Assembly: GCF_016026235.1 (NCBI RefSeq)
Contig: NZ_CP065613.1
Direction: 5' to 3' (one strand)
DNA: 64,000 nt
Origin: Escherichia coli
Lineage (GTDB): Bacteria; Pseudomonadota; Gammaproteobacteria; Enterobacterales; Enterobacteriaceae
Made by a program: the position numbers and the translations under genes. Within the stretch, counting starts at the first letter, position 1. The number at the start of each line of letters is the position of its first letter. Shown here one piece after another: positions 2,721-63,554 of the stretch. The notes below the pieces were generated by a model, which was given only the letters and a program-made list of their open reading frames with translations, was not told the DNA's origin and did not search any database.

Positions 2721-2721
2721 G

Positions 2722-4874: not shown

Positions 4875-4876
4875 GA

Positions 4877-6404: not shown

Positions 6405-6407
6405 TGC

Positions 6408-6863: not shown

Positions 6864-6879
6864 GTGATAACTCCGTAAA

Positions 6880-8103
6880 TTACATTCCAACCATATTGTT
6901 CAGTTGCAGCATCGGCTCGAGGATGGCGATGACGATAAACAACACCACGCCCGCCATCATCACCACCAGCGCAGGCTCAAACAGCCCCAACGCCAGCCCC
7001 ACCTGGGTATCAAATTCCCGTTCCTGGTTAACAGCGGCCTGCTCAAGCATGGTTTCCAGTTCGCCGCTCTGTTCGCCGGAGGCGATCATGTACAGCATCA
7101 TCGGCGGGAACAGGCGCAACTCCGCCAGCGCGGCGCGCAGACTGCTTCCTTCGCGGACGCGATCTGCCGCCAGCAGTAGTTGTTGTTCGACATAGCGATT
7201 TGCCGACACAGCGGCAGCGGTCTGAATGCCTTCCAGTAGCGGAACACTGCTGGCGGTGAGGATGCTTAAGGTGCGGGAAAACCGCGCCGTATTCAGCCCG
7301 CGCGCAACACGCCCCGTCACAGGCAGGCGCAGCACGGTTTTGTCCCAGCGCAGGCGCATCGCAGGATTTTTAAGTAGCCGTTGCCCCAGCACCAGAAGCC
7401 CCAGCAAACCCGCCAGCCAGTAAACGCCGCTGGCCTGTAACGCGTCGCTCATGGCAATAAGCGTGCGGGTTGAGGCGGGTAGCGCGTGTCCGAGATGATC
7501 AAACTGTTCGATGATTTTCGGCACCACTGCCGTCAGCAAAATAGTGACTACGCCCGTTGCCACCACCAGCAGAACCAGCGGATAGAGCATGGCCTGCAAT
7601 AGACGTGATTTCAGGCGCTGTCGCTGTTCGGTGTAATCTGCCAGGCGATTGAGCACCACGTCGAGATGCCCAGATTTTTCTCCGGCAGCAACCATCGAAC
7701 AAAACAGAGAATCAAAGACGCGGGGATGTTCGCGCAGGCTGTCCGACAGGGTGTAACCTTCCTGAATCCGGCTGCGCAGCGCCATTCCGAGGCTTTTTAC
7801 ATGCAGTTTTTCACTTTGCTCACTGACCGCCTGTAAGCAGGTTTCCAGCGGCATTGCTGCCTGTACCAGCGTTGCCAGTTGGCGCGTGAACAGCGCAAGA
7901 TCTGCCGCCGCCACGCGACGATGTGCGTGCCGCCGACGCTGCAACATCCCCCCTGACGAAGTATTCATCCGGGCTTCAATATGCACGGGGATAAGCTCTT
8001 TACCGCGCAACAACTGGCGGGCATGACGCGCGGAATCCGCCTCAATCATACCTTTGGTTTTGCGACCATTACGCTCCAGCGCCTGATAGTAAAACAGTGC
8101 CAT
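6880..8103 (-). CDS. gspF: type II secretion system inner-membrane platform protein F
   Basis: 407-aa polytopic membrane protein in the canonical position between gspE and gspG. Confidence 0.8.
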   Translation of the reverse strand: MALFYYQALERNGRKTKGMIEADSARHARQLLRGKELIPVHIEARMNTSSGGMLQRRRHAHRRVAAADLALFTRQLATLVQAAMPLETCLQAVSEQSEKLHVKSLGMALRSRIQEGYTLSDSLREHPRVFDSLFCSMVAAGEKSGHLDVVLNRLADYTEQRQRLKSRLLQAMLYPLVLLVVATGVVTILLTAVVPKIIEQFDHLGHALPASTRTLIAMSDALQASGVYWLAGLLGLLVLGQRLLKNPAMRLRWDKTVLRLPVTGRVARGLNTARFSRTLSILTASSVPLLEGIQTAAAVSANRYVEQQLLLAADRVREGSSLRAALAELRLFPPMMLYMIASGEQSGELETMLEQAAVNQEREFDTQVGLALGLFEPALVVMMAGVVLFIVIAILEPMLQLNNMVGM

Positions 8104-9596
8104 TACGCCTCCATGGTTACCCGCAGAACTTCATCGAGAGAGGTTTCTCCGGCGAGCACTTTCTCAATGCCGTTGCTGCGGATACCCGCAGAGTGTTGTC
8201 GGACATAACGTTCCAGCTCCAGCTCCCCGGCCTGACGGTGGATCAAATCACGCAATGTGGCATCCACCACGATCAGCTCATGGATGGCAGTCCGTCCGCG
8301 AAAACCTTTGTGATTACAGGCGGGACAGCCCTGTGGATGGTACAGAGTGACGGTACGGGCGTCGGTAATTCCCAGCAGGCGTTTTTCTTCGTCAGTGGCT
8401 GGTGCGGGCTGGCGGCAGTCGGGACACAGCGTGCGAACCAGTCGCTGCGCCATCACGCCCGTCAGACTGGAAGAGAGCAGGAAAGGCTCCACGCCCATAT
8501 CCTGCAAACGTGTGATCGCCCCCACCGCTGTGTTGGTATGCAGCGTGGAAAGGACCAGGTGTCCGGTAAGTGAAGCCTGGACGGCGATTTCTGCGGTTTC
8601 GGTATCGCGGATTTCACCGACCATCACCACATCTGGGTCCTGACGCAAAATCGCGCGCAGCCCACGGGCAAAGGTCATGCCGACGCGGGTGTTAACCTGC
8701 GTCTGACCGATCCCTTCAATCATGTATTCGATGGGATCTTCAACCGTGAGAATGTTGCGCGAATGGTTGTTCAGCTCCTGCAATCCGGCGTACAGCGTGG
8801 TGCTTTTGCCGGAACCCGTCGGCCCCGTCACCAGAAAGATGCCGTGCGGTTTGTGTAACAGCTGGCGCAACTGCGCGGTCAGTTGCTGGCTAAGCCCCAG
8901 ACGCTCCAGCGTCAGGCGGGCCTGGTTTTTGTCCAGCAGTCGCAGCACCACGCGCTCGCCCCAGGCAGAAGGCATGGTGGAGACACGCACGTCAATCGCC
9001 CGGCCGCCCAGCAACAGCGCAATACGTCCATCCTGCGGCACGCGCTTTTCGGCAATGTCCAGCCGCGCCATCACCTTGATACGCGATACCAGCAGCGAGG
9101 CCAGTTTGCGCCCCGGGCGCAGCATTTCATGTAATGTGCCGTCAACACGAAAACGGATCACCAGACTCTTTTCAAATGTCTCGATGTGAATATCCGAAGC
9201 GCCTTCTTTAATCGCCTCTGCCAGCATAGCGTTGATCAGTTTGATGATTGGCGCGTCGTCGTCGCTTTCCAGCAGATCTTCCGTTTCCGGCAGTTCTTCG
9301 GCGAGGGTAAAAAAATCCTCAGCAGAACCGAGATCTTCCATCAACTGGCGAGCTTCGGAAGAGTCCCGCTGCCAGACCGCATTCAGCCGCTGTTCAAATT
9401 CGGCCTCGTCGATTTGCCGCAGCGTAAAGGGCGCGTTCAGCCCCCGCTGCAGCTCCTGCAAAACAGAGAGCGATAGCGGATGAACGTGGAGGATCTCCAG
9501 CGACGCTTCGCACCATGCCACCAGGCTAAACCGACGGCTGAAACTGTAGGGCAGACGCACGGTGTTGGCGGTGGTTTCCTGTGCTACAGGCACCAT
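8103..9596 (-). CDS. gspE: type II secretion system ATPase E
   Basis: Walker [10 protein letters not shown] and a C-terminal CPDC...CPAC tetracysteine motif; 497 aa. Confidence 0.85.
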
Positions 9597-28770: not shown

Positions 28771-29913
28771 TTAAATTTGCTTTTCATACAATCGGTAACG
28801 CTTGTACGGCTCCGCCCCAATGCGTTCCAGCATGTTATTCATGCCTGTATTGGTTTCGAGGATCCATGACATCTCCAGCGCATCGATCTTCCGGCGGGCA
28901 AACGGATCGCGTAAGGCTTCAATCAATAACAGCGCAATCACCGGGCCGATGCGGCTGAACTGATACTCGTCGCGCACGCCCATCAGCGGTACTCGCGCAG
29001 TTCGCACACCGCTGACTTTCAAACGCCACAGCAATTTTGCCCAGCCGAAGGGAAAGAGCGATCCGTTCAGATCGGCAATCGCCTCGTTGATGTTCGGCAA
29101 GCCGACAATAAACGCGCAGGGTGCAGAATCAATCTCAGCGATATAGATCATATCGTCCGGCACCAGATATTTAAGTTGATCGCCCATGGTCGCGAATTCA
29201 TGTTCGGTAAACGGCACAAATCCCCAGTTGTGCTGCCAGCCAGAGTTGAAAATCTCACGCAGGATCTGCATTTCTTCGGCAAACCGCTGACGATTGATGC
29301 AGCGAATGGTCACCTTTTTGCGCACCTGATCCATCAGTTTTTTTAGCGCCGGAGAGAAAGTGAGATCGGTTCGCTGCATCCACCACGCCAGTAAATCAAT
29401 GCCTTTGTGATAACCCAGTTGTTCAATATGCGCGGCATACCACGGTTTGCCGTGTGGCATCATCGCACAGGGTGGTGTGTCAAAACCTTCAATCAGTAAT
29501 CCGCTTTCCTGATTGATATTCAGGCTGAAAGGACCGCTGATCTTACTTGCACCTTGTGACTTCAACCACGCTTCCGCTGCGCCAAACAACGCGGCAAAAA
29601 CCTGCGGATCATCAATGGCGTCAATCATGCCGAAATGACCGGTATCTTCACCGTAACGCTCACGGTGCAAGGTATCTATTTGCGCGGTAATACGCCCAAC
29701 TATCTGCCCCGCTTTTTTTGCCACCCACGCCTGCCAGATGATATGGTCCGTCCCCGGATTTTTCGCAGACAAATGCTCGTTGCGTTCAATGAATAAAGGG
29801 GGTATCCAGTTTGGATCGTCGGGATAAAGTAATGACGGAAAAGCGATAAATGCCTTAAGGTCATTTTTATTAATTACTTTTTCAATTTTAATCATCAGCA
29901 GATCGCATTCCAT
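28771..29913 (-). CDS. yghO: YghO-family protein, putative GNAT-like N-acyltransferase
   Basis: 380-aa ORF convergent with glcC and divergent from the FAAL operon; the acyltransferase assignment is inferred, not motif-proven. Confidence 0.55.
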   Translation of the reverse strand: MECDLLMIKIEKVINKNDLKAFIAFPSLLYPDDPNWIPPLFIERNEHLSAKNPGTDHIIWQAWVAKKAGQIVGRITAQIDTLHRERYGEDTGHFGMIDAIDDPQVFAALFGAAEAWLKSQGASKISGPFSLNINQESGLLIEGFDTPPCAMMPHGKPWYAAHIEQLGYHKGIDLLAWWMQRTDLTFSPALKKLMDQVRKKVTIRCINRQRFAEEMQILREIFNSGWQHNWGFVPFTEHEFATMGDQLKYLVPDDMIYIAEIDSAPCAFIVGLPNINEAIADLNGSLFPFGWAKLLWRLKVSGVRTARVPLMGVRDEYQFSRIGPVIALLLIEALRDPFARRKIDALEMSWILETNTGMNNMLERIGAEPYKRYRLYEKQI

Positions 29914-30283
29914 AGTTCTGTGGGTAACAAATAATTAACGGTGACAAACAGGTTGCAACAGCAACGAATGGCACCTTAATAATCAACCCAATGAATACAA
30001 ACGACGAATAAATAGTATTTATTAATGATTACGATAAGGTCAAAGACTACACAGAAGCGCCACAATGCCTTTTGTCGATTTAAGGCGACCGGACAAGGCT
30101 TCTTCTTAATATATTCATAAATTAAATATCATTCACAATAAAAACAAAAAACTTAAACTCATTATTTAAATCAATGTTCATTTTCACACCGATGAAAATA
30201 CTATCTCATTTATCTTTTATGCCTATATAATCCACCGCATTATTGTCATTTTATTTTTGATATCCAATTTTTTCGTGGTGTAT
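29914..30283. promoter_or_regulatory. AT-rich divergent promoter region between yghO and the FAAL operon
   Basis: About 370 bp of very AT-rich DNA with A/T tracts between two divergent genes. Confidence 0.35.
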
Positions 30284-32005
30284 ATGTCTAATAAAATCTT
30301 TACGCATTCCCTACCTATGCGCTATGCCGATTTTCCAACGCTGGTTGATGCTTTGGACTACGCCGCTCTGAGTAGCGCCGGAATGAATTTTTATGACAGA
30401 CGTTGCCAACTTGAAGATCAACTGGAATATCAGACGTTAAAAACGCGTGCCGAAGCTGGTGCGAAGCGGTTGTTATCGCTGAACCTGAAAAAAGGCGAAC
30501 GCGTGGCGCTGATTGCCGAAACGAGTAGCGGGTTCGTAGAGGCTTTTTTTGCCTGTCAGTATGCTGGCTTAGTCGCCGTCCCGTTGGCGATTCCAATGGG
30601 CGTCGGTCAGCGGGATTCCTGGAGCGCCAAACTCCAGGGTTTACTGGCAAGTTGCCAGCCCGCAGCCATTATCACTGGTGATGAGTGGTTGCCACTGGTC
30701 AATGCCGCGACGCATAACAACCCCGAATTACATGTTTTAAGCCACGCCTGGTTTAAGGCATTACCGGAAGCCGATGTTGCGCTCCAGCGTCCAGTTCCGA
30801 ACGATATCGCCTACCTCCAGTACACCTCCGGCAGCACCCGTTTTCCCCGTGGCGTCATTATCACCCATCGCGAAGTGATGGCTAATCTACGTGCTATAAG
30901 CCACGATGGCATTAAATTACGCCCTGGCGACCGCTGCGTCTCCTGGCTGCCTTTCTACCATGATATGGGACTGGTCGGCTTTCTCCTGACCCCCGTCGCC
31001 ACGCAACTTTCAGTAGATTATTTGCGCACTCAGGATTTTGCCATGCGTCCTTTGCAATGGCTTAAATTGATCAGTAAAAATCGCGGCACCATTTCCGTTG
31101 CGCCGCCGTTTGGCTATGAATTGTGCCAGCGCCGCGTGAATGAAAAAGATCTCGCTGAACTGGATCTTTCCTGCTGGCGCGTCGCTGGTATTGGTGCAGA
31201 ACCCATCTCCGCAGAACAACTCCATCAATTCGCTGAATGTTTCCGTCAGGTTAACTTTGACAATAAAACTTTCATGCCGTGCTACGGACTGGCAGAAAAT
31301 GCGCTGGCTGTCAGCTTCTCTGATGAAGCCTCCGGGGTTGTGGTTAACGAAGTGGATCGCGACATCCTCGAATATCAGGGTAAAGCCGTCGCGCCGGGTG
31401 CAGAGACACGCGCCGTATCGACTTTCGTCAACTGCGGCAAAGCGTTGCCGGAACATGGTATTGAAATCCGCAATGAAGCAGGTATGCCGGTCGCGGAACG
31501 TGTGGTAGGCCATATTTGCATCTCCGGTCCCAGTCTGATGAGCGGTTACTTTGGCGACCAGGCTTCGCAAGACGAGATTGCCGCGACGGGCTGGTTAGAC
31601 ACCGGCGACCTCGGTTATCTGCTGGACGGTTATCTGTATGTCACCGGACGCATTAAAGATCTGATTATTATTCGTGGCCGTAATATCTGGCCGCAGGATA
31701 TTGAATATATTGCGGAACAGGAACCGGAAATTCATTCTGGCGATGCGATTGCTTTTGTTACCGCCCAGGAAAAAATCATTTTGCAGATCCAGTGTCGGAT
31801 CAGCGATGAAGAACGTCGCGGACAGCTTATCCACGCGCTGGCAGCACGGATCCAAAGCGAATTTGGCGTAACAGCGGCTATCGATCTGTTGCCGCCCCAC
31901 AGCATTCCCCGAACGTCCTCCGGCAAGCCTGCCCGTGCGGAAGCGAAAAAACGTTATCAGAAGGCTTATGCTGCAAGCCTTCATGTGCAGGAATCCCTGG
32001 CATGA
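30284..32005 (+). CDS. fatty-acyl-AMP ligase / acyl-ACP synthetase-like adenylating enzyme
   Basis: Adenylation motifs YLQYTSGSTRFPRGV and GWLDTGDLGYL; about 573 aa from the internal ATG (track ORF starts at TTG 30257). Confidence 0.75.
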   Translation: MSNKIFTHSLPMRYADFPTLVDALDYAALSSAGMNFYDRRCQLEDQLEYQTLKTRAEAGAKRLLSLNLKKGERVALIAETSSGFVEAFFACQYAGLVAVPLAIPMGVGQRDSWSAKLQGLLASCQPAAIITGDEWLPLVNAATHNNPELHVLSHAWFKALPEADVALQRPVPNDIAYLQYTSGSTRFPRGVIITHREVMANLRAISHDGIKLRPGDRCVSWLPFYHDMGLVGFLLTPVATQLSVDYLRTQDFAMRPLQWLKLISKNRGTISVAPPFGYELCQRRVNEKDLAELDLSCWRVAGIGAEPISAEQLHQFAECFRQVNFDNKTFMPCYGLAENALAVSFSDEASGVVVNEVDRDILEYQGKAVAPGAETRAVSTFVNCGKALPEHGIEIRNEAGMPVAERVVGHICISGPSLMSGYFGDQASQDEIAATGWLDTGDLGYLLDGYLYVTGRIKDLIIIRGRNIWPQDIEYIAEQEPEIHSGDAIAFVTAQEKIILQIQCRISDEERRGQLIHALAARIQSEFGVTAAIDLLPPHSIPRTSSGKPARAEAKKRYQKAYAASLHVQESLA

Positions 32006-32916
32006 ATCAAACTGTCGCGGTGACGGGCGCTACCGGTTTTATCGGTAAATATATTATCGATAACCTGCTCGCCCGCGGCTTTCACGTTCGCGCATTGACG
32101 CGTACTGCCCGCGCTCACGTCAATGACAATCTCACCTGGGTGCGCGGTTCGCTGGAAGATACTCATTCACTTAGCGAACTGGTTGCCGGAGCCAGTGCGG
32201 TGGTCCATTGCGCTGGGCAAGTGCGCGGACACAAAGAAGAGATTTTTACCCACTGTAACGTTGACGGCAGCCTGCACCTGATGCAAGCGGCAAAAGAGAG
32301 CGGCTTTTGCCAACGTTTTCTGTTTATCTCTTCGCTGGCGGCGCGCCATCCCGAGCTCTCCTGGTACGCAAATTCCAAACACGTCGCCGAACAACGGCTG
32401 ACTGCAATGGCTGACGAAATTACGCTGGGCGTTTTTCGCCCGACAGCCGTGTATGGTCCCGGCGATAAAGAGTTAAAACCGCTGTTTGACTGGATGCTGC
32501 GCGGCCTGCTGCCACGACTTGGTGCACCAGATACACAGCTCTCTTTCCTGCACGTCACCGATTTTGCGCAAGCAGTGGGTCAGTGGTTAAGCGCCGAAAC
32601 TGTACAGACGCAAACCTATGAATTATGCGATGGCGTCGCTGGCGGCTATGACTGGCAACGCATACAGCAACTTGCCGCCAACGTCCGTTGCGGTTCCGTG
32701 CGAATGGTTGGTATTCCTCTGCCGGTACTCACCTGCCTTGCGGATATCAGTACCGCGTTGAGTCGCCTGGCAGGTAAAGAACCTATGCTGACCCGCTCGA
32801 AAATTCGTGAATTAACCCACGCCGACTGGTCGGCAAGTAATAACCGTATTTCTGAAGATATTAATTGGTTTCCCGGGATTAGCCTGGAACACGCATTACG
32901 CAACGGGCTATTTTGA
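32002..32916 (+). CDS. NAD(P)-dependent epimerase/dehydratase-family (extended SDR) reductase
   Basis: N-terminal Rossmann motif VAVTGATGFIGKYI; start overlaps the upstream stop by 4 nt. Confidence 0.7.
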   Translation: MNQTVAVTGATGFIGKYIIDNLLARGFHVRALTRTARAHVNDNLTWVRGSLEDTHSLSELVAGASAVVHCAGQVRGHKEEIFTHCNVDGSLHLMQAAKESGFCQRFLFISSLAARHPELSWYANSKHVAEQRLTAMADEITLGVFRPTAVYGPGDKELKPLFDWMLRGLLPRLGAPDTQLSFLHVTDFAQAVGQWLSAETVQTQTYELCDGVAGGYDWQRIQQLAANVRCGSVRMVGIPLPVLTCLADISTALSRLAGKEPMLTRSKIRELTHADWSASNNRISEDINWFPGISLEHALRNGLF

Positions 32917-32947
32917 TTGTCTTGTTTAAAGGTGTGTTAACGTTTCT

Positions 32948-33196
32948 ATGGTAAATCGTGAAATAGTAATGGATTACATCCTTTCCTGTTTACAGGATTT
33001 GGTCGAAAACGGTGTGGAAATTAAGCCCGACAGCGATCTCGTCAACGATCTTGGCCTGGAGTCGATCAAAGTGATGGATCTCTTAATGATGCTGGAAGAC
33101 AGATTCGATATTTCCATTCCTATTAATATTCTGCTGGATGTCAAAACCCCTGCGCAATTAATGGAAACTCTACTTCCATGGCTGGAGAATAAATAA
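32948..33196 (+). CDS. acyl carrier protein
   Basis: 82 aa with the phosphopantetheine-attachment signature DLGLESIKVMDL. Confidence 0.7.
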   Translation: MVNREIVMDYILSCLQDLVENGVEIKPDSDLVNDLGLESIKVMDLLMMLEDRFDISIPINILLDVKTPAQLMETLLPWLENK

Positions 33197-34368
33197 TGGG
33201 GCTATACGATAAATATGCGCGCCTTGCTGGCGAGCGACTGCAATTTAGTGACAACGGGTTAACACCGTTTGGCACCTGTATTGATGAAGTGTATTCCGCC
33301 ACCGAAGGCCGGATCGGCAATAAAAAAGTGATTCTGGCCGGGACCAATAATTATCTCGGTTTAACCTTTAATCATGATGCCATCAGCGAAGGTCAGGCAG
33401 CGTTAGCGGCCCAAGGCACCGGCACCACCGGTTCTCGTATGGCAAACGGCAGTTATGCGCCGCACCTGGCGTTAGAGAAAGAGATTGCCGAGTTTTTCAA
33501 TCGCCCTACCGCTATCGTTTTTTCAACCGGTTATACCGCTAATTTAGGCGTCATCAGCGCACTTGCCGACCATAACGCCGTGGTGTTACTGGATGCCGAC
33601 AGCCACGCCAGTATTTATGACGCCTGTTCTCTCGGTGGCGCGGAAATTATTCGTTTCCGCCATAACGATGCTAAAGATCTGGAACGGCGCATGGTTCGCC
33701 TCGGTGAACGGGCGAAAGAGGCGATTATCATCGTTGAGGGCATCTACAGCATGCTCGGTGACGTTGCGCCGCTGGCGGAAATTGTTGATATCAAACGTCG
33801 TCTCGGTGGTTATTTGATTGTCGATGAAGCGCATTCGTTTGGCGTGTTAGGCGCAACAGGGCGCGGACTGGCTGAAGCTGTCGGCGTTGAAGATGATGTG
33901 GATATTATCGTTGGTACTTTCAGTAAAAGTCTGGCCTCGATTGGCGGTTTTGCTGTCGGTTCGGAAGCGATGGAAGTGCTGCGCTACGGCAGCCGCCCGT
34001 ATATTTTTACCGCCTCTCCTTCTCCGTCCTGCATTGCGACCGTGCGCTCGTCGTTAAGAACTATTGCCACACAACCAGAGCTGCGGCAAAAGCTGATGGA
34101 TAACGCCAACCATCTGTATGACGGTCTGCAAAAACTGGGTTATGAGTTAAGTTCACATATTAGCCCGGTAGTGCCAGTAATAATCGGTTCGAAAGAGGAA
34201 GGTTTACGCATCTGGCGCGAGCTTATCTCGCTGGGCGTGTATGTGAATCTTATCCTGCCGCCTGCCGCGCCTGCAGGCATCACGCTGCTGCGCTGTAGCG
34301 TAAATGCTGCCCACAGTCGTGAGCAAATCGATGCCATCATTCAGGCATTTGCTACTCTGAAGCAGTAA
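33196..34368 (+). CDS. PLP-dependent alpha-oxoamine synthase (BioF/Kbl/serine palmitoyltransferase family)
   Basis: 390 aa with the conserved PLP-lysine context GTFSKSLASIGGF and a DEAHSFG motif; start overlaps the ACP stop by 1 nt. Confidence 0.75.
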   Translation: MGLYDKYARLAGERLQFSDNGLTPFGTCIDEVYSATEGRIGNKKVILAGTNNYLGLTFNHDAISEGQAALAAQGTGTTGSRMANGSYAPHLALEKEIAEFFNRPTAIVFSTGYTANLGVISALADHNAVVLLDADSHASIYDACSLGGAEIIRFRHNDAKDLERRMVRLGERAKEAIIIVEGIYSMLGDVAPLAEIVDIKRRLGGYLIVDEAHSFGVLGATGRGLAEAVGVEDDVDIIVGTFSKSLASIGGFAVGSEAMEVLRYGSRPYIFTASPSPSCIATVRSSLRTIATQPELRQKLMDNANHLYDGLQKLGYELSSHISPVVPVIIGSKEEGLRIWRELISLGVYVNLILPPAAPAGITLLRCSVNAAHSREQIDAIIQAFATLKQ

Positions 34369-34373
34369 TGTGA

Positions 34374-34406
34374 GCCCGCCGTGGTGTTTGCGCCACGGCG
34401 GGTTTA
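34374..34406. terminator. bidirectional terminator hairpin between convergent operons
   Basis: cccgccgtggtg / tttg / cgccacggcggg perfect stem followed by ttt, between the AOS stop and the convergent permease gene. Confidence 0.55.
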
Positions 34407-35483
34407 ATGTTGTCTGTCATACCAATACACCAGGCTCAACGCCACCAACACAAACGCTACCGGTAAACCGAGCGCGGTAACAGGTGCGCTTAACGCAAAT
34501 AGCAATCCCAGATTAACCATGATTTGATAGCTGATCCAGGTGAGTAAGCCCACGATGACGCCTACAGCGAGACGGCTACCCATCCCAGGCGAACGCGGGG
34601 CAGTAAAGGTAAACGGCACAGCCAGCAAAATCATCGCCAGGGTCAGGATGGGTTGCCCCAGTTTTTCCCACAGTGCAAGGCGGTATTCGCTGCTGGGTTG
34701 CCCGGTTTCCTGCAAATAATGGATGTAATGATTAAGCTGACGGACAGAAAAAGTATTCCCCGGCATTGATAACTCTTCAAGATTCATACTGGTGAAGGCC
34801 GATTGCCAGGCAAGATTATCTAATGTTTCCAGCGTTTCTTTGCCATTCAGCCATTTTTTATGATTCACACCATGCAGGACCCACGTTTTGTCGTCTTTAA
34901 TGGTGGCACTGCGTGCATAAATGTAGGATTCAAGCGAGAGATCGTCGGGATAATGAAATATCTCCACGCCCACCGGCTGGCCCTGCTCGTTCAGCGATTT
35001 CACCGTCACAAATTCATTACCACGCCTGGCCCACAGCATATTGCCGGTAATGTCATCGTCCTCCCCCAACGCGGTGGCGGTCGATTTGATTTGCAGCGCC
35101 TGTTGCTGCAATGGCGACGCCACCCACTCATCTATCGCGCCTAACGAAACAGTCCACAATATCCCGGCAACCAGCGCCACCAGTGCAATACGGAAGATAG
35201 AAAACCCCGTGCTGCGAATGGCGGTAAGCTCACTGTTTTTCGATAACTGCCCCAGGCCAACAATCCCTCCCAATAAGGCGATAAACGGCGAAAGTTCGAC
35301 CAGTGTGCGCGGTAAGGTCATTAGCACCACCAGCACCGCCTGAGTCCAGCGATAACCGCCCGGGCTGACATCATCCAGTTCGTTAATCAGGTTGAAGGTG
35401 GTAAAAAGCGGCAGCAATAGCCCTGCGGCGGCGGCAAAACCGAGAAAGAGATGACGGATTAAATAGCGACTGAAAACATTCAT
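34404..35483 (-). CDS. LptG-like permease (YjgP/YjgQ family), paralog
   Basis: Start at MNVFSRYLIRHLF gives a 4-nt ATGA overlap with the upstream gene; six predicted TM segments around a large periplasmic loop. Confidence 0.6.
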   Translation of the reverse strand: MNVFSRYLIRHLFLGFAAAAGLLLPLFTTFNLINELDDVSPGGYRWTQAVLVVLMTLPRTLVELSPFIALLGGIVGLGQLSKNSELTAIRSTGFSIFRIALVALVAGILWTVSLGAIDEWVASPLQQQALQIKSTATALGEDDDITGNMLWARRGNEFVTVKSLNEQGQPVGVEIFHYPDDLSLESYIYARSATIKDDKTWVLHGVNHKKWLNGKETLETLDNLAWQSAFTSMNLEELSMPGNTFSVRQLNHYIHYLQETGQPSSEYRLALWEKLGQPILTLAMILLAVPFTFTAPRSPGMGSRLAVGVIVGLLTWISYQIMVNLGLLFALSAPVTALGLPVAFVLVALSLVYWYDRQH

Positions 35484-36550
35484 CGGGAAAATTTCTGCAG
35501 CAAAGAGAAGTCGCGTGCGACCAGCATCAGCAGGCCCATTAGCATGAGTCCGGGTACTAACCACAAACCAGGAATGAGGGGAATCGCGCCGTTAGCCACC
35601 AGCGTACGGCAGACGTCGCCGCCATAAAAAATGGCAATAAACAGCAACGTCAGTGGCAATAATGTTGAAAATCGCCCTTGCCGCGGTTTTACCCGACTTA
35701 ATGAAATGGCCAGCAGCGCCATCAACAATGCTGTCAGGCCACGGCTTTGCCGCCATTGCAGTTCGGCATGATCGGCAGGAAATACAGAGCGTGCCAGCTC
35801 CGTGACCGATTTTGCTTTGCGTTTGACGTTAGGGCTTTGATCCAGCGGATTCAGATGTAATTGCAGATTACGGTAGATCTGTTCATTGTCGTCACGCCCC
35901 TGATGATCGAGAAGATAGGCAGTGCCGTTGTGCAACATAACGGTCGGTTTCTCGGGTGATGGGTCAACCACATCAACCGAACGGGCGCGGAAAATGCGGG
36001 TTCGATTGGCAGTAGAAGTATAAATCAGCGCGTCAGTCAGGCGATTATTATCCTGATCAACCGTCTGCGAAAGGATCATTCGTCCGTTATCGTTAGTGTT
36101 AAATTTCTTTGCCCGCAACTGGCGAACATCCAGCTCCGACTGCGACTGCTGCTCCAGTTGATAAATCTGCGCATAAGCCCACGGACGACCATACATCGAC
36201 AGAAGGGTGACAAAAATACTTAGCGGTATCGCCAGATAAAGAACGGCTTTGTACAAGCGTCCCGGACTGCCCCCCGCCGCAGAGATAGCGGTAATTTCCG
36301 AGTCGGTATACATCTGCCCTAGCGTCACGCCAACTGACACATACAGACCAACAGGTAACAACATCTCCAGTGCAATCAGCACTTTGTAGAAAACGATATC
36401 CAGCACAACATCAAGAGCTAATGTCCCATTTGCCGCTTCGGTCAGATAACGCTGTGCGGAGTAGCTGGCGAAAATAAAGATCAGAAAACCGACGATAATC
36501 AGCACCAGACGGCGCGTACCACGCATGATGTAGTGTTCAACCAGCTTCAT
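35480..36550 (-). CDS. LptF-like permease (YjgP/YjgQ family), paralog
   Basis: 356 aa with the same architecture as the neighbour; TM1-loop region GQMYTDSEITAISAAG resembles recalled LptF (YTESEITVMHACG). Confidence 0.6.
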   Translation of the reverse strand: MKLVEHYIMRGTRRLVLIIVGFLIFIFASYSAQRYLTEAANGTLALDVVLDIVFYKVLIALEMLLPVGLYVSVGVTLGQMYTDSEITAISAAGGSPGRLYKAVLYLAIPLSIFVTLLSMYGRPWAYAQIYQLEQQSQSELDVRQLRAKKFNTNDNGRMILSQTVDQDNNRLTDALIYTSTANRTRIFRARSVDVVDPSPEKPTVMLHNGTAYLLDHQGRDDNEQIYRNLQLHLNPLDQSPNVKRKAKSVTELARSVFPADHAELQWRQSRGLTALLMALLAISLSRVKPRQGRFSTLLPLTLLFIAIFYGGDVCRTLVANGAIPLIPGLWLVPGLMLMGLLMLVARDFSLLQKFSR

Positions 36551-36580
36551 CTCACTAACGCCCTCAATCCTTTGAATTTT

Positions 36581-37144
36581 TTATTCATTGATCAGTTTCT
36601 GCGCCAGCGCAATGACATGATCTACCTCTTCCGGCGTCAGGCTGCCGTCCTTTGCCCACTGAATTTGCCCGGTTTTATTCAGCACCAGAATGGTTGAACT
36701 CTGCTCCGGCAAGCGCCAGGCAACGCGTCCCTGTCCATTGCCGTCAATAACGAATTGCGCCCACGGATAGCGGCGTTTATTTTTTTCGATTTTGCCAACG
36801 ACAAAATAGCCAGTACCAAAGATGGCATCATCAGTGTTCACAATGGTGGTGGGCTGAAAACGATCCTGTGGAAAGTTTGCCGCTTCAACCGCTTTAATTA
36901 ACAGTGAGTTCTTCTTCTTCGCTGACTTACGCCCGGCGATATACTGGATAATGCGGACTTTTCCCGCCAATTGTGTGCTGTTCCACTTTTGGTAGTGAAT
37001 TTCGTCGTCGCTATTCAGAAGCAGCTCGCCGCCTTCCTGAATATAAACAGGGGTAACCGTTTTGCCAGTGACGAAATTGTGTGCCTGCACACCCGGGGCT
37101 AAGAGCATGATAATCAGCGCAATAATCAAACGAGATGACATCAT
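36581..37144 (-). CDS. periplasmic protein with signal peptide (YtfJ-like)
   Basis: Signal peptide MMSSRLIIALIIMLLAPGVQA; resemblance to YtfJ is from memory only. Confidence 0.45.
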   Translation of the reverse strand: MMSSRLIIALIIMLLAPGVQAHNFVTGKTVTPVYIQEGGELLLNSDDEIHYQKWNSTQLAGKVRIIQYIAGRKSAKKKNSLLIKAVEAANFPQDRFQPTTIVNTDDAIFGTGYFVVGKIEKNKRRYPWAQFVIDGNGQGRVAWRLPEQSSTILVLNKTGQIQWAKDGSLTPEEVDHVIALAQKLINE

Positions 37145-37152
37145 TGCTCCGG

Positions 37153-37977
37153 TTATAGCGGAAAACGCGAAATCAGCAGCTCTAAGCGCTGGCGAATATC
37201 GCTATCCAGCGCCACCGGTGCATCATACGACTGGCGGTTTTCCATATCATCCGCCACCATGTCGTCGTGTTTATCCCCCATCAGGCCATTAATGGCGGCG
37301 AGGAAACGGGAAATCTGTAACGCCTCTTTATTTTCAGGATCAAGCGATCTTAAGGTGTCGTAATAAGAAACCTGCTGGCTGATGATTTTTCGCACATCAT
37401 GAAATTCCCTGCCGGTTAGTCGCGGTTTGGCAATTATCTCTTTCAGGGCATGCATTTGCTTTTGCCGATAGGCAATAAAACCGCTTACGCTTTCTAACTG
37501 GCTATGGCGTAATGAATAGTTCACCAACGACCAGACCGGAGAGCTTAAATAAATTCGTAACAGGTTGCCGTAATACGACACAATATTTTTCTTACCGTTA
37601 CGAAATCCGTCCTGAAAACGTCCCAGAAAAACGGTCGTTTTGCCGAATAAAAATCTGGCCTGATGCTTTTTTAAATACAGCCGTTGTGCAAAACGTAGAT
37701 GCTTGTAGCGCGCTCGCATGTATTTAAACTGTTTACGCTCGTCTGTCGTCAGCTCATCGCCTTTGGCTTGTTTGCGAATTAAACGAAGTAATTCCTGACG
37801 ATCAACGCCATTGAGCCAGAATTGCAGGCATAACGCGTAATTATCATGGATGATTTCGGTGGTACAACATAGTGCGATAGTCGGCGGCAAACTGACCTGG
37901 GCATCAACAACATCATCTTCCTCAATCGCAACAAATAGATGCTCGCTCGCCTCAAGCGGGAAATATTTTCTCATCAT
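37153..37977 (-). CDS. hypothetical cytoplasmic protein (274 aa)
   Basis: ORF whose start overlaps the flippase stop by 1 nt; no recognisable motif. Confidence 0.45.
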   Translation of the reverse strand: MMRKYFPLEASEHLFVAIEEDDVVDAQVSLPPTIALCCTTEIIHDNYALCLQFWLNGVDRQELLRLIRKQAKGDELTTDERKQFKYMRARYKHLRFAQRLYLKKHQARFLFGKTTVFLGRFQDGFRNGKKNIVSYYGNLLRIYLSSPVWSLVNYSLRHSQLESVSGFIAYRQKQMHALKEIIAKPRLTGREFHDVRKIISQQVSYYDTLRSLDPENKEALQISRFLAAINGLMGDKHDDMVADDMENRQSYDAPVALDSDIRQRLELLISRFPL

Positions 37978-39326
37978 CAGGATTTCTCTCCGGCTGCGTT
38001 ATAAAGCAAGGAATGGCGCTGAAAAAAAGCCTTTAAGATCGGAATTAGCGAAAGCACCACATCCAGACATTGACCGCCGAAATAAGCAAACGCTGCTCCC
38101 AGCACGCCAAACAGATGACAGAACATGAACAGCAATACGATGTAGCCGATTGAGGCGATGGTTTGCGCCACGAGAAAAGCGCGCTGTTTTCCCGCCATCA
38201 ATAGCAATGACTCCTGAGGGAAGCCCAGCATCGAGATCACAATTGCGCCCAGCATCACCTGAATCAGGTCATACGCTTCGAGATACTTAACGCCAAACAC
38301 CAGCGAAATGAGCGGCTTGCCGACGATCAACACCGCGAGCGCCACCAGAATACCGATTCCGCCCGCCAGTAAACCGGACTTCACACCTAACAACCACGGT
38401 CTGGTGGTGCGCGGATCTAAACGCATCACCTCTGGGTAAAAACTTTTACCCAGCAAACCCGCTGGCGTTCCGGCGGCGTCGAAGAATGTCATGGCGATTT
38501 TAAATAACCCGGCGACAGCGGGTCCTAACACGATCCCCACCAACACTGTGCTGCACGAGTTACGCGCCGACCAGATGGAGTGGGCAATGTTGGTTGACCA
38601 GACAAAACTCCACGCGCCTTTAATGTGTCGGGCAGACTCAAACAGATTCAATTTGAAGGCGTTATGGATATTTCTGCGGCGTAATTCGCGCGCGGCAAAC
38701 CACCAGTACATGGTGCCGCCAACCAGATTCGACACGTACCAGGCAATAACAAAACCCGCAAAACCAAAGTCAAAATACCAGGCTGCGACGCTCCCCGCTG
38801 CGCGCAGAAAAGGTTTCGTCGCCTGCTGTACAGCAATCAAATCAAAGCGATCTACCGCACGCAGAATGCCGGTCGGCGTGGAGGAAGCCATTGAAGGAAT
38901 GAGCGTGCAATACAGCGCTGCCAGCCAAAAGCTTTGGTCATCCAGACCTAATGAATGGGAAAGAAAAGGGAGTAAGGCAATGCCGCCGACAATCGCCACC
39001 GCGCCGCTGACGATATCCAGCGAGAAGGAAAATGAGACGACATTGCGAAATTGCTGCGGATTATTGTTGGTTAATGCTGGTGTTCCGTACTGAACCACCA
39101 GCTGCCATGTCTGAAACTTAATAAAATCGCTGATCGACTTGGCGTACGATTGCACAATCACCAGTACGCCAAACATGGCGGGCGTCATCCCTTTACCGGC
39201 ACACGAGAGCGCCAACAGACCCAGCAAGGCGCTCACGACATTACTGGAGCCTAACCAGGCGCTATTGCGAATAATGGTGCGAAACGCGCCATCTGCAAAC
39301 CAATGTTTGATGTTAAAACCCGCCAA
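37977..39326 (-). CDS. yghQ: MOP-superfamily (Wzx-like) polysaccharide/lipid flippase
   Basis: 449-aa protein with about 12 hydrophobic segments. Confidence 0.65.
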   Translation of the reverse strand: MAGFNIKHWFADGAFRTIIRNSAWLGSSNVVSALLGLLALSCAGKGMTPAMFGVLVIVQSYAKSISDFIKFQTWQLVVQYGTPALTNNNPQQFRNVVSFSFSLDIVSGAVAIVGGIALLPFLSHSLGLDDQSFWLAALYCTLIPSMASSTPTGILRAVDRFDLIAVQQATKPFLRAAGSVAAWYFDFGFAGFVIAWYVSNLVGGTMYWWFAARELRRRNIHNAFKLNLFESARHIKGAWSFVWSTNIAHSIWSARNSCSTVLVGIVLGPAVAGLFKIAMTFFDAAGTPAGLLGKSFYPEVMRLDPRTTRPWLLGVKSGLLAGGIGILVALAVLIVGKPLISLVFGVKYLEAYDLIQVMLGAIVISMLGFPQESLLLMAGKQRAFLVAQTIASIGYIVLLFMFCHLFGVLGAAFAYFGGQCLDVVLSLIPILKAFFQRHSLLYNAAGEKS

Positions 39327-39371
39327 TTCAGCCTGACCTTATCGTTGATAGTAAAAAGTATCCCGCCAGCC

Positions 39372-40130
39372 TTAAGTTAAACTTCGGCGGTCAGAAACGA
39401 TGGCAACCAGAGAAACCGCCTTCTGTGCCTGTTCCAGCACTTCGCTGTAGGGCGCTCTGGAATCAATCTCAAGAATTTTTGTGCCGTTATAGCCAATCGT
39501 CGACATAACACTGATTTTGTCCTGCAGCTCGGCATAGTCATGGTCAGGCTTGCGGGAGATGGCAGTCTCAATATCAATGCCCAGGCGAATAATTAATTCC
39601 GGGCGATATTGCGCCATTTGTTGGTATAAACGCCGTTCGCGCTGCGCCAGAAACATGCTGATTTTCCCGGTCGCACGTTCGACGCCAATCCCCGGTCCGT
39701 CATAATAAAAGCCCGAAATTTCAGCCTGCGGGAAGCGATCGCTGACCACCAGAACGCCACTTTGCGCCAGTCGCTGAACCTTGCGTAGATTCGCCATTCT
39801 TCGCAGCGAGAAGCAGTACATAATCACCGCCGCCCATAGCGCCGGAGATTTGGTTTTCATGCTTTGGGTTTTCGAGGATTTGGCCGCCAGTCGCCGTTCC
39901 AGCCAGACGCCAACCAACGGCAATCGTTTGATTTTGTCGCCGTCTTCGCCGGAGAGCAGCCCCAAATAGCGGCGCTCGGTTTGCCAGTGTTGTTGCAGCG
40001 ATTTCACCAGGTCGGTGGTCAGTGTGGATTTACCGGTGCCATCACACCCGACCACCGCAATCAGCCCCGGAATGTAGTTGGGCTGCGGCGCGGTTGTACT
40101 AATAACAGTTTGTGTTTGTAGTGCATCCAT
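39372..40130 (-). CDS. yghR: P-loop NTPase, kinase-like
   Basis: Walker A VGCDGTGKST; shares DRFPQ and SRKPDH motifs with two neighbouring paralogs. Confidence 0.65.
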   Translation of the reverse strand: MDALQTQTVISTTAPQPNYIPGLIAVVGCDGTGKSTLTTDLVKSLQQHWQTERRYLGLLSGEDGDKIKRLPLVGVWLERRLAAKSSKTQSMKTKSPALWAAVIMYCFSLRRMANLRKVQRLAQSGVLVVSDRFPQAEISGFYYDGPGIGVERATGKISMFLAQRERRLYQQMAQYRPELIIRLGIDIETAISRKPDHDYAELQDKISVMSTIGYNGTKILEIDSRAPYSEVLEQAQKAVSLVAIVSDRRSLT

Positions 40131-40161
40131 TCGTTAAATCATCCCCTATCCATTTTGGTGA

Positions 40162-40875
40162 TCAAGAAAGCGCGGCGTGAATTGCGCGTAGTGACGCTTG
40201 CAGAATTTCATCGGCTGGTTGCCGACCATCCAGTTCAAGGATCTTTGCGCCATTGAATGTCAATTGCGGCGTAACGGCGATTTTTTCCTGTAACGCTGCC
40301 AGTTGGTGGTCAGGTTTACGCGCAAACGCGGTTTGTTCATCAATGCCAAGACGAATCAACAATACGGGTAAATAAGACGCCATCCATTGGTACAGCTTCA
40401 ACTCGCGCTGCCTTAACATTTTTATCCAACCGTTACCGCCCGTGGTTTTTGCCAATTGCGGGCCATCAAAGCGAAAACCCGGCACTTCAACCTGCGGGTA
40501 GCGGTCGGTGATGAGCAGATGGCCTTGCTGGCTTCTACACAACATTTTGCGAAACTTGTACGCCCGCCAGCAGGAAAGCAGATAGATAACCAGCGCAGTA
40601 ATATTGCCAGGCGGTGTTGAGGGCTTTTCGTGCACATGTGCCGCTTTACTTCGCAGATAACGCCCAAAAGGTGCGCCAATAACAGGGAGCTGTGAAATCC
40701 ATTCGCCAATTCGCCCGGACGATTGCCCGAGATAAATGCGTTCTGTTGGCATTCTTGCTGCCAGTTCATTTACCAGGCTTGCCGTGAGGGTCGATTTACC
40801 TGAACCATCACATCCTACAATGGCAATAACACGCACTGGCGTGGAATTAATTATTGACATATTACGTTGATTCAC
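40162..40875 (-). CDS. yghS: P-loop NTPase, kinase-like
   Basis: Walker A VGCDGSGKST, plus DRYPQ and ARKPDH motifs. Confidence 0.65.
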   Translation of the reverse strand: MNQRNMSIINSTPVRVIAIVGCDGSGKSTLTASLVNELAARMPTERIYLGQSSGRIGEWISQLPVIGAPFGRYLRSKAAHVHEKPSTPPGNITALVIYLLSCWRAYKFRKMLCRSQQGHLLITDRYPQVEVPGFRFDGPQLAKTTGGNGWIKMLRQRELKLYQWMASYLPVLLIRLGIDEQTAFARKPDHQLAALQEKIAVTPQLTFNGAKILELDGRQPADEILQASLRAIHAALS

Positions 40876-41048
40876 GAAAAACCCGGCAGTAAATAATGTA
40901 TTGAATATTACGTGGTCCGTGCTCAGAATATCCGTTCAACCTTATTGTGACAATGGTTAATTGTGACATTGACCTGAATTACGCTTTCATAAAAACATAT
41001 TAACCAAATAAATATTTTGGATGGATATTTAAATTTAAGGATATATTC

Positions 41049-41741
41049 ATGCAGTCAATAACACCTCCATTAATTGCCGTTATTGGTAGCGATGGTTCAG
41101 GCAAGTCAACGGTGTGTGAACATCTCATTACCGTTGTCGAAAAATATGGTGCTGCCGAAAGAGTTCATTTAGGAAAACAAGCCGGAAATGTCGGTCGTGC
41201 AGTGACAAAATTACCGTTGATGGGAAAATCCTTACATAAAACAATTGAACGAAATCAGGTGAAAACAGCAAAAAAATTGCCAGGACCAGTTCCGGCGCTG
41301 GTAATTACAGCGTTTGTCGCCCGTCGCTTACTGCGCTTTCGTCATATGCTTGCCTGTCGTCGTCGCGGGTTAATTGTTCTAACCGACCGTTATCCTCAGG
41401 ACCAAATTCCTGGCGCTTACGATGGTACGGTGTTCCCACCTAACGTTGAAGGTGGTCGTTTTGTCTCATGGCTGGCAAGCCAGGAACGTAAAGCGTTTCA
41501 CTGGATGGCGAGCCATAAGCCTGATCTGGTCATCAAACTCAATGTCGATCTAGACGTGGCCTGCGCGCGTAAGCCTGACCACAAAAGGGAATCGCTGGCA
41601 AGAAAGATAGCCATAACGCCACAGTTAACCTTTGGTGGTGCACAACTGGTTGATATCGACGCCAATCAGCCACTGGAACAGGTGTTAGTTGATGCAGAAA
41701 AAGCGATTACGGATTTTATGACCGCGCGTGGTTATCACTAG
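41049..41741 (+). CDS. yghT: P-loop NTPase, kinase-like
   Basis: Walker [10 protein letters not shown], plus DRYPQ and ARKPDH motifs; divergent from yghS. Confidence 0.65.
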
Positions 41742-46550: not shown

Positions 46551-46640
46551 CCAGGCCGGATAAGGCGTTCACGCCGCATCCGGCAATCGAGCACAATGCC
46601 TGATGCGACGCTGCCGCGTCTTATCAGACCTACGAAAGCT
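46551..46640. repeat. REP elements
   Basis: ggccggataaggcgttcacgccgcatccggca and gcctgatgcgacgctgccgcgtcttatcag palindromic units between yghU and hybG. Confidence 0.8.
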
Positions 46641-56473: not shown

Positions 56474-56594
56474 TCAACATATCCGTTAAACCTTTGTCGC
56501 ATAATTCTGAGGTTTAGGGATCTTCCTGGTTCCCTTATCAACGCATCGAGAGCGTCTACCCTTAAAGGACGTTGAACCTGAAGGGAGAAAAACG

Positions 56595-57479
56595 ATGTCT
56601 CATTTAAAAGACCCGACCACGCAGTATTACACTGGTGAATATCCCAAACAGAAACAACCGACGCCAGGCATCCAGGCGAAGATGACACCGGTACCGGATT
56701 GCGGCGAGAAAACCTATGTTGGTAGCGGTCGCCTGAAAGATCGTAAAGCACTGGTGACAGGGGGCGATTCCGGAATAGGTCGCGCTGCCGCCATCGCTTA
56801 CGCGCGTGAAGGGGCTGACGTGGCGATCAGTTATCTTCCCGTGGAAGAAGAAGACGCTCAGGATGTGAAAAAGATCATTGAAGAATGCGGTCGCAAAGCC
56901 GTTCTGCTGCCAGGCGATTTAAGCGATGAGAAGTTTGCCCGTTCGTTGGTTCACGAAGCGCATAAGGCGTTAGGCGGGCTGGATATTATGGCGCTGGTCG
57001 CCGGGAAACAGGTTGCCATTCCTGATATTGCAGACCTCACCAGCGAACAGTTTCAAAAGACCTTTGCCATTAACGTTTTCGCGCTGTTCTGGCTAACCCA
57101 GGAAGCGATCCCCCTGCTACCGAAAGGTGCAAGTATCATCACCACTTCGTCAATCCAGGCATACCAGCCAAGTCCGCATTTACTGGACTATGCGGCTACG
57201 AAGGCGGCGATTCTGAACTACAGCCGTGGCCTGGCAAAACAGGTCGCGGAGAAAGGTATTCGGGTGAATATTGTCGCGCCAGGCCCTATCTGGACGGCAC
57301 TACAAATTTCCGGCGGACAAACGCAGGATAAGATCCCGCAGTTTGGTCAGAAAACGCCGATGAAGCGTGCGGGGCAACCGGCGGAACTGGCCCCAGTATA
57401 TGTTTATCTGGCAAGTCAGGAGTCGAGCTACGTCACCGCAGAAGTGCACGGTGTGTGCGGCGGCGAGCATTTAGGTTAA
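56595..57479 (+). CDS. yghA: short-chain dehydrogenase/reductase
   Basis: Glycine-rich cofactor motif [12 protein letters not shown]; 294 aa. Confidence 0.85.
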
Positions 57480-57534: not shown

Positions 57535-57745
57535 ATGTGGCGAAAACGCCTTATCCGCCTACAAACGCATGAAGATTCAACATGTTGCAATAGATTTTGT
57601 AGGCCTGATAAGCGTAGCGCATCAGGCATTGAGCACCTAATGCCGGATGCGGCGTGAACGCCTTATCCGGCCTACAAACGCACGAAGATTCAACATGTTG
57701 CAATAGATTTTGTAGGCCTGATGAGCGTAACGCATCAGGCAATTC
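57535..57745. repeat. REP/BIME array with two copies of an 85-bp composite unit
   Basis: cgccttatccggcctacaaacgca.gaagattcaacatgttgcaatagattttgtaggcctgat.agcgta.cgcatcaggc occurs twice, flanking a canonical REP (tgccggatgcggcgtgaacgccttatccggcctac). Confidence 0.85.
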
Positions 57746-63450: not shown

Positions 63451-63554
63451 GCTTTTTACGCCTCAAACTTTCGTTTTCGGGCATTTCGTCCAGACTTAAG
63501 TTCACAACACCTCACCGGAGCCTGCTCCGGTGAGTTCATATAAAGGAGGAACGT

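Follow-up and report, generated by a model that had tools for sequence, protein, structure and literature searches.

A sphingolipid locus of Escherichia coli: a published ceramide-synthesis core joined to Lpt-type export genes and a possible head-group module

Escherichia coli is the reference organism for the biology of the Gram-negative envelope, and textbooks credit it with no sphingolipids. What, then, is the role of a ~13-kb locus, running from yghO to yghT between glcC and pitB, whose genes read like a route to a ceramide? The locus occupies positions 28771–41741 of the window analysed here, a stretch of 64,000 nt from E. coli contig NZ_CP065613.1 (assembly GCF_016026235.1), and comprises 13 intact open reading frames (ORFs). 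An initial annotation made from the sequence had proposed a complete pathway for synthesis and export of a ceramide-like lipid and believed the locus to be undescribed. We find that this is the sphingolipid locus of E. coli, homologous to the CC_1152–CC_1168 cluster of Caulobacter crescentus, so that the proposal is correct yet already known: Padilla-Gómez et al. (2022; PMC9386255) described the five-gene core, and a 2026 preprint drew the second Lpt-type permease pair (10.64898/2026.04.12.717747). The word 'complete' is too strong with regard to the end product, to the head group that it bears and to expression from the native locus. The association of YghR, YghS, YghT, YghQ and a 274-aa orphan protein with spt is an addition to the published picture.

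The pyridoxal 5'-phosphate (PLP)-dependent alpha-oxoamine synthase groups, by its profile and database scores, with serine palmitoyltransferase (SPT) and not with BioF, Kbl or CqsA. It passes the NCBIfam model NF047599, the Rhodobacteria-type SPT equivalog, with 599.9 bits against a cut-off of 500, and stays below the cut-offs of the sister models for BioF (333.9 versus 426 bits), Kbl (297 versus 460), CqsA (NF005526; 221 versus 428) and 5-aminolevulinate synthase (219 versus 339), as well as below that of the alpha-proteobacterial SPT model (428 versus 670). In a search of the PDB, the SPTs of Sphingomonas came out on top at ~376 bits, followed at a distance by Kbl and BioF (~200 bits) and CqsA (124 bits). 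The identities BioF, Kbl and CqsA were rejected on these scores, and the grouping with BioF or Kbl that the initial annotation had named as fatal to its proposal is not what we observe. Aligned to the S. paucimobilis SPT, the enzyme retains both the PLP-binding lysine K244 (in GTFSKS) and the active-site histidine H137 (in DADSHASIYD), each of them invariant. In its gene context, spt begins at position 33196, exactly where acpR ends, with aasR two genes upstream. The window DNA is 100% identical to that of E. coli FDAARGOS_943, for which the RefSeq annotation gives the same gene set and already labels one gene 'spt: serine palmitoyltransferase'.

For the first steps of the pathway, published assays on nearly identical proteins are available. 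Padilla-Gómez et al. (2022; PMC9386255) cloned AasR (ECD_02851), AcpR (ECD_02853) and Spt (ECD_02854) from BL21(DE3), and showed that AcpR bears 4'-phosphopantetheine and is acylated by E. coli AasR, and that E. coli Spt makes 3-oxo-sphinganine, with acyl-AcpR preferred over acyl-CoA. The window counterparts are 98.2% (AasR), 100% (AcpR) and 99.7% (Spt; one mismatch in 390 residues) identical to the BL21(DE3) proteins, whose locus contains the same 13 genes in identical order, with 96.4–100% identity to the window proteins. The ceramide-pathway proposal thus matches assays of 98–100% identical proteins. By profile, AasR scores 869 bits on the fatty acyl-AMP ligase model NF006624 (cut-off 600), and AcpR yields matches to acyl carrier protein (ACP) families that are all sub-threshold. 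The scope of the 2022 study was the five core genes, ECD_02850–ECD_02854, among which yghO and the reductase gene were named as the remaining two dihydroceramide genes; the eight downstream genes lay outside its discussion. The same study gives identities between the E. coli and Caulobacter CC_ proteins of 53% for Spt, 44% for the bacterial ceramide synthase (bCerS), 42% for AasR and 34% for the reductase.

Over 99% of its length, YghO shares 43% identity with the orthologous bCerS from Caulobacter sp. BIN43, and its identity to CC_1154 is 44% (E = 1e-107; PMC9386255). Searches of its sequence profiles against Pfam, NCBIfam and the PDB returned no match, and its fold is visible by structure prediction only: an AlphaFold2 (AF2) model built from 14 homologues (predicted local distance difference test, pLDDT, 87) retrieved tandem GNAT acyltransferases as the best Foldseek matches, with E values down to 5e-15 and template-modelling (TM) scores of 0.58–0.74. 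The matches include a tandem GNAT of the clavulanate pathway, MAB_4324, a glucosamine N-acetyltransferase, MshD and FemX, with the PDB entries 2wpw, 7q3a and 5kga among them. An acyltransferase fold for YghO, as anticipated by the initial annotation, is thereby recovered together with full-length similarity to Caulobacter bCerS. No assay of E. coli YghO was found in the literature searched. The reductase, a member of the extended short-chain dehydrogenase/reductase (SDR) group, carries the motifs GATGFIG and YANSK (YxxxK) and is 33–34% identical, at 94% coverage, to its Caulobacter orthologue (CC_1164, also called CerR or Epi), all its NCBIfam matches being sub-threshold. Its gene, starting at 32002, overlaps the 3' end of aasR (32005).

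Downstream of the core lie candidate export genes and a ytfJ-like gene. LptF2 and LptG2 pass the corresponding equivalog cut-offs (TIGR04407, 318.4 versus 230 bits; TIGR04408, 305.9 versus 240 bits) and each has six predicted membrane segments. In the PDB search, they reach 94 bits to the housekeeping E. coli LptF and 144 bits to LptG, respectively, scores that mark the two as distantly related paralogues. To call this divergent second pair (34404–36550) 'LPS export ABC transporter permease LptF/LptG', as RefSeq does, is therefore misleading. LptF2 and LptG2 recur beside spt in many of the loci that we fetched (see below), at 23–36% identity. In Caulobacter, LptF2 interacts with LptG2, and both interact with the housekeeping LptB; the pair becomes essential, and its deletion impossible, while anionic sphingolipid is produced; the preprint reporting this also drew a 'sphingolipid operon' of E. 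coli UTI89 with LptF2/LptG2 homologues (10.64898/2026.04.12.717747). The YtfJ-like protein (TIGR01626, 213 bits versus a cut-off of 151) has a hydrophobic stretch at its N-terminus that would fit a signal peptide, and among the spt loci examined its gene is next to spt in Enterobacterales only. YghQ matches the MOP flippase profile weakly and has at least eight hydrophobic segments; it is 27% identical, at 97% coverage, to the flippase of the Caulobacter locus (CC_1166), and YghQ-like flippases are also found in several betaproteobacteria.

The remaining proteins, YghR, YghS, YghT and the orphan, are less easily placed. YghR/S/T are paralogues, mutually 34–45% identical, with the invariant motifs GxDGxGKST (Walker A), DRYPQ (DRY-type) and ARKPDH, the last of which is specific to the family. 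On the dTMP kinase model TIGR00041 (cut-off 83.25), they score 32, 22 and 25 bits, respectively, all below the cut-off, whereas an AF2 model of YghS (pLDDT 84) retrieved thymidylate kinases as the top Foldseek matches (TM scores 0.55–0.67, 15–20% identity). The two groups have the fold alone in common, and the name 'dTMP kinase' given by RefSeq to YghS and YghT is unsupported and misleading. Among 1.84 billion representative proteins, we identified 2634 relatives (E ≤ 0.001), many of which are proteins of ~500 aa that carry an NTP_transf_5-like domain at the N-terminus; other architectures include tandem kinase–kinase proteins, one GT4–kinase fusion and one MOP flippase–NTP_transf_5–kinase fusion. 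These multidomain relatives lie in Wzx/Wzy-type glycan clusters. No functional description of this wider family was found. Judging from the fusion or adjacency of its members to MOP flippases and GT4 glycosyltransferases, the family seems to act together with MOP flippases, the general target being surface molecules linked to a lipid. In the spt loci, a ceramide or a ceramide derivative would be the most likely substrate. The orphan protein is a soluble protein with the conserved motifs RARYKHLRFA, FHxVRKI and INGLMGxxHD and no match in Pfam, NCBIfam or the PDB profile search. Two candidate identities for it were rejected: a CHAD domain, prompted by the His/Arg-rich motifs (hhalign against E. 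coli YgiF, probability 0.2%), and the NTP_transf_5-like N-terminal domain of the ~500-aa kinase fusions (hmmsearch 8.7 bits; hhalign 1%).

To place these genes in a broader context, we fetched 80 spt loci with 10-kb flanks, one genome per species, from the Spt alignment. The queries run against these loci were the 13 E. coli proteins plus 13 from Caulobacter sp. BIN43, the genes of the latter locus having been identified through gene order and family matches. The five core genes (yghO/bCerS, aasR, reductase, acpR and spt) are syntenic in most loci that reach the neighbouring genes, across Enterobacterales, Nitrospira, Geobacter, many beta- and gammaproteobacteria and Caulobacter, with YghO/bCerS showing 42–53% identity outside Enterobacterales. 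The YghRST trio is found within ~8 kb of spt, in differing gene orders, in at least five lineages, namely, Enterobacterales, a Rhodocyclaceae genome, Methylotenera, another betaproteobacterium and Luteibacter/Dyella; YghT in particular is conserved next to spt in the Rhodocyclaceae, Methylotenera, Luteibacter and Dyella loci. YghQ accompanies the trio in 20 of 21 full loci and the orphan in 18 of 21, and in the full loci examined the orphan was never seen without YghRST. Separately, the loci of Erwinia endophytica, Serratia bockelmannii and Tatumella morbirosei have the five-gene core without matches to LptF2/LptG2, the YtfJ-like protein, the orphan or YghQ, and some of them keep YghRST matches; the Tatumella and Serratia sequences end early, so that absence is not established there.

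The survey also showed a mutual exclusion. The 47 loci with full flanks divide into 21 with YghRST only, 21 with Caulobacter-type tailoring genes only, five with neither and none with both (Fisher p = 5e-9; 5e-4 when Enterobacterales are excluded), bearing in mind that such counts are phylogenetically non-independent and cover 10-kb flanks only. Because tblastn at E = 1e-5 did not detect Caulobacter CpgA/B/C outside Caulobacter in the fetched loci, the test was based on the better conserved CC_1152, CC_1153, CC_1157 and CC_1158 genes; in the literature, ~30% identical CpgA/B/C orthologues are described in Azotobacter and Pseudomonas luteola. Neither CpgA/B/C nor CC_1152/1153/1157/1158 was detected by tblastn in the window or, within 10 kb, in any YghRST-containing locus. 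Given that YghR/S/T, YghQ and the orphan occur with spt yet never with the Caulobacter head-group genes, the pattern suggests that the head-group chemistry of E. coli differs from that of Caulobacter.

The locus is widespread within the species. Of 5426 complete E. coli genomes, 4051 carry it at full length with 95–99% identity and ~770 more carry part of it, whereas in ~600 it was not found. Compared with a divergent Escherichia lineage, the ratio of nonsynonymous to synonymous substitutions (dN/dS) is 0.03–0.14 for all 13 genes (dS 0.13–0.64). Since dN/dS is this low in every gene, all 13 are under purifying selection and the locus is maintained where present. The comparison lineage is a record titled Escherichia coli SCPM-O-B-8794, and dS values of 0.13–0.64 are large for divergence within a species; it may represent a cryptic Escherichia clade, or there may have been recombination at the locus. 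The genes are kept across many Enterobacterales genera. Its full-length presence in 4051 genomes, the clustering of the same genes around spt in other Enterobacterales and that of the core in many phyla show that the locus is no chance assembly. In the K-12-type genome NZ_CP137709.1 (locus coordinates 4172–6366), a copy of the insertion sequence IS5 replaces the stretch from aasR to the orphan gene together with the part of yghQ encoding the C-terminal portion, and K-12-type genomes retain yghO and yghR/S/T. Because this IS5-associated deletion removes the C-terminal part, the 'yghQ' of papers based on the K-12 Keio and ASKA collections, such as one on chlorhexidine adaptation (PMC8170033), is a truncated remnant beside an insertion sequence.

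Taken together, a sphingolipid synthesis and export locus is, with high probability in our judgement, the best explanation of the data. In the first two steps of this model, both demonstrated with the BL21(DE3) proteins, AasR charges AcpR with a fatty acid at the expense of ATP and Spt joins the acyl-AcpR to L-serine, yielding 3-oxo-sphinganine. YghO would add the N-acyl chain, as suggested by homology and fold, and the SDR reductase would reduce the 3-keto group to give dihydroceramide, as its Caulobacter homologues do. YghQ, by comparison with its Caulobacter paralogue, may then move the lipid across the inner membrane, from which LptF2/LptG2, probably driven by the housekeeping LptB as in Caulobacter, would extract it toward the outer membrane. 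YghR/S/T and the orphan, acting with YghQ, might alter the head group of the ceramide, with phosphorylation as the simplest possibility. We tentatively extend this last step to a broader proposal, which we regard as possible but doubtful: YghQ, YghR/S/T and the orphan could form an unrecognised head-group and flipping module that takes the place of the Cpg pathway in Enterobacterales as well as in some beta- and gammaproteobacteria, and that would enable about three-quarters of E. coli strains, BL21 and uropathogens among them, to place a ceramide-based, probably phosphorylated lipid in the outer membrane under conditions other than those so far used in the laboratory.

Several observations weigh against this picture. 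The literature searched contained no report of wild-type E. coli producing a sphingolipid, and formation of 3-oxo-sphinganine by BL21(DE3) with empty vectors is not described in the 2022 study (PMC9386255); since the product has been seen on over-expression only, cells grown in the laboratory may keep the native locus silent. Homology is the basis for assigning bCerS activity to E. coli YghO and CerR activity to the reductase. A simple hydropathy scan revealed no hydrophobic leader on the E. coli reductase, in which the Rossmann motif follows directly at the N-terminus. Caulobacter CerR, by contrast, is a periplasmic protein, and even in Caulobacter the order and compartment of N-acylation and keto reduction are debated (PMC11087976). 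The wider YghRST family is found mostly in Wzx/Wzy-type glycan clusters, so that its substrate need not be ceramide, and intact yghR/S/T persist in K-12 without spt. Finally, the caveats on the co-occurrence counts apply to the proposed module directly.

Some of these points could be accommodated by a different view of the downstream half of the locus, in which yghQ, yghR, yghS, yghT and the orphan gene constitute a Wzx-type module for a glycan or lipid-linked sugar, or the remnant of one, that merely adjoins spt. The relatives of YghRST in polysaccharide clusters, beside Polysacc_synt flippases, GT4 and Wzy_C proteins and rml genes, as well as the fusions of the kinase to a MOP flippase plus NTP_transf_5 or to GT4, are what such a module would predict, and so is the retention of yghR/S/T in K-12-type genomes. 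The last argument says little, however, because the K-12 state results from the IS5-associated deletion and the YghR/S/T protein accessions are the same as in BL21(DE3). Chance adjacency is also hard to reconcile with the recurrence of the module near spt in at least five separate lineages with differing gene orders, with its never occurring together with Caulobacter-type tailoring genes and with its apparent co-transcription with lptF2 and lptG2 in E. coli; furthermore, the E. coli locus contains no glycosyltransferase. We consider the glycan module unlikely. A more sceptical view would hold that the locus is a silent or decaying relic from which E. coli makes no lipid in nature. Its loss from K-12-type genomes, its absence or partial state in about one-quarter of complete genomes, the over-expression behind the BL21 product and the lack of a reported native product in the literature searched are consistent with decay, but 13 of 13 ORFs are intact, the dN/dS values are low at substantial dS, 4051 genomes carry the full-length locus and many Enterobacterales genera conserve it, which together render a relic quite improbable.

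Two further alternatives concern individual proteins. YghR/S/T are P-loop proteins encoded in the same apparent operon as LptF2 and LptG2, and there is no copy of LptB in the locus, so that they might be thought to be the ATPases energising these permeases. Yet their fold is that of thymidylate kinases rather than of an ATP-binding cassette (ABC) nucleotide-binding domain, they carry DRYPQ and ARKPDH instead of the ABC signature, six non-enterobacterial YghRST loci lack LptF2/LptG2 within 10 kb, and the Caulobacter LptF2/LptG2 rely on the housekeeping LptB; on fold, motifs and co-occurrence, we rejected this role, which appears very improbable indeed. The initial annotation had itself offered as an alternative that the oxoamine synthase is a CqsA-type enzyme making a long-chain amino-ketone signal. 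The two enzymes belong to one superfamily and weak CqsA matches do exist, but with the SPT model passed, the CqsA model failed by a wide margin and CqsA far behind the SPTs in the PDB, with bCerS and CerR homologues adjoining spt and with the BL21 allele making 3-oxo-sphinganine from L-serine, the CqsA reading is effectively refuted.

The organization of the locus is summarized in Table 1. All gene classes listed by the initial annotation are present as intact ORFs, but the thirteenth gene, the orphan between the ytfJ-like gene and yghQ, had been overlooked, and aasR had been started at a TTG codon (30257) instead of the annotated ATG at 30317. Four apparent transcription units can be discerned: yghO alone on the minus strand; a plus-strand operon of aasR, the reductase gene, acpR and spt, in which genes overlap or abut; a minus-strand run of seven genes, yghS-yghR-yghQ-orphan-ytfJ-like-lptF2-lptG2, with gaps of at most 46 bp or overlaps; and yghT, divergent from yghS. 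The hairpin between the convergent spt and lptG2 genes is the best terminator-like site of the region and, judging from its sequence, likely a bidirectional terminator. Around the divergent yghO/aasR region, the G+C content drops to 0.41 (positions 29500–30499) compared to ~0.51 for the locus overall; a promoter scan of this region gave only consensus-level matches, no more than shuffled sequence did.

Table 1. Features of the sphingolipid locus (window coordinates).
Feature	Position	Strand	Assignment
yghO	28771..29913	-	Bacterial ceramide synthase (bCerS/Aca) homologue; N-acyltransferase with predicted tandem-GNAT fold
yghO/aasR intergenic region (divergent)	29914..30316		AT-rich; presumed promoters
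aasR	30317..32005	+	Fatty acyl-AMP ligase-type acyl-AcpR synthetase
SDR reductase gene (CerR/Epi homologue)	32002..32916	+	GATGFIG and YxxxK motifs; Caulobacter orthologue
acpR	32948..33196	+	Dedicated acyl carrier protein
spt	33196..34368	+	Serine palmitoyltransferase; PLP-dependent alpha-oxoamine synthase
16-bp G+C-rich hairpin	34371..34406		Likely bidirectional terminator; best terminator-like site of the region
lptG2	34404..35483	-	Second, divergent LptG-type permease
lptF2	35480..36550	-	Second, divergent LptF-type permease
ytfJ-like gene	36581..37141	-	YtfJ-family protein; hydrophobic N-terminal segment, probably periplasmic
Orphan gene (Hyp274)	37153..37977	-	274-aa soluble protein
yghQ	37977..39326	-	MOP-superfamily flippase; homologue of Caulobacter CC_1166
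yghR	39372..40130	-	Thymidylate-kinase-fold P-loop protein, paralogue 1
yghS	40162..40875	-	Thymidylate-kinase-fold P-loop protein, paralogue 2
yghT	41049..41741	+	Thymidylate-kinase-fold P-loop protein, paralogue 3; divergently transcribed

Elsewhere in the window, positions 1–18400 belong to a Mu-like prophage that adjoins glcA and extends past the window start, with genes for head, tail sheath and tube, baseplate and tail fibre proteins as well as mom (17662–18369) and com (~17526–17711); a truncated hypothetical gene (~18425–18838) lies at its inner end. The C0719 small RNA (sRNA; Rfam RF00117, 295 bits) maps between glcA and glcB (21085–21306, plus strand), naRNA4/REP-type elements are located at 46554–46630 and 57602–57672, and the ES173 sRNA is at 63453–63516. 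In the annotation of the window strain, yghA, for an NADP-dependent aldehyde reductase (56583–57467), figures as a pseudogene interrupted by an internal stop.

Contrary to the textbook picture, then, the ceramide pathway is intact and under purifying selection in most E. coli strains, which possess a dedicated Lpt-type exporter as well. Were the lipid produced in the host, the outer-membrane barrier, susceptibility to polymyxins and host sphingolipid signalling could all be affected, and the lipid would also be relevant to lipidomics and to protein production in BL21. Five attached genes are without characterised relatives; the co-occurrence pattern provides a concrete lead on the function of YghR/S/T and the orphan, whereas the value of the analysis otherwise lies in a correct rediscovery.

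Among known systems, the BL21(DE3) genes ECD_02850–ECD_02854 represent the same locus as that in the window. The E. coli Spt shares 47% identity with the S. paucimobilis SPT, one of the structurally characterised Sphingomonas enzymes (S. paucimobilis and S. wittichii; PDB 2jg2 and 2x8u), including the PLP lysine and the histidine, but differs from them in fitting the beta/gamma-proteobacterial model NF047599 rather than the alpha model. LptF2/LptG2 resemble the permeases of the lipopolysaccharide (LPS) extractor LptB2FG in passing the LptF/LptG cut-offs and in their six predicted membrane segments, but come without a dedicated LptB or LptC, and their proposed substrate is a sphingolipid, not LPS. 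YghR/S/T share with the thymidylate kinase/nucleoside monophosphate kinase fold the Walker A and DRY-type motifs, and YghS models as this fold, but they differ from thymidylate kinases by an extra insertion at residues ~50–90, by the ARKPDH motif and by a lipid or glycan rather than nucleotide context. The closest parallel is the Caulobacter sphingolipid cluster, which has all five dihydroceramide genes, with the same aasR–reductase–acp–spt operon order (identities between E. coli and Caulobacter sp. BIN43 of 55% for Spt, 43% for bCerS, 44% for AasR, 33% for the reductase and 41% for the ACP), a second LptF/LptG pair (23–25% identical) and a MOP flippase. By contrast, CpgA/B/C, the CC_1152/1153 nucleotidyltransferases, the HIT protein, the CC_1158 phosphoesterase, CC_1167 and LptC2 of Caulobacter have no counterpart in the E. 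coli locus, which in place of the head-group genes carries YghR/S/T, the orphan 274-aa protein and the YtfJ-like protein. Because the genes of the Cpg pathway are replaced by others, the final lipid of E. coli is unlikely to be ceramide phosphoglycerate.

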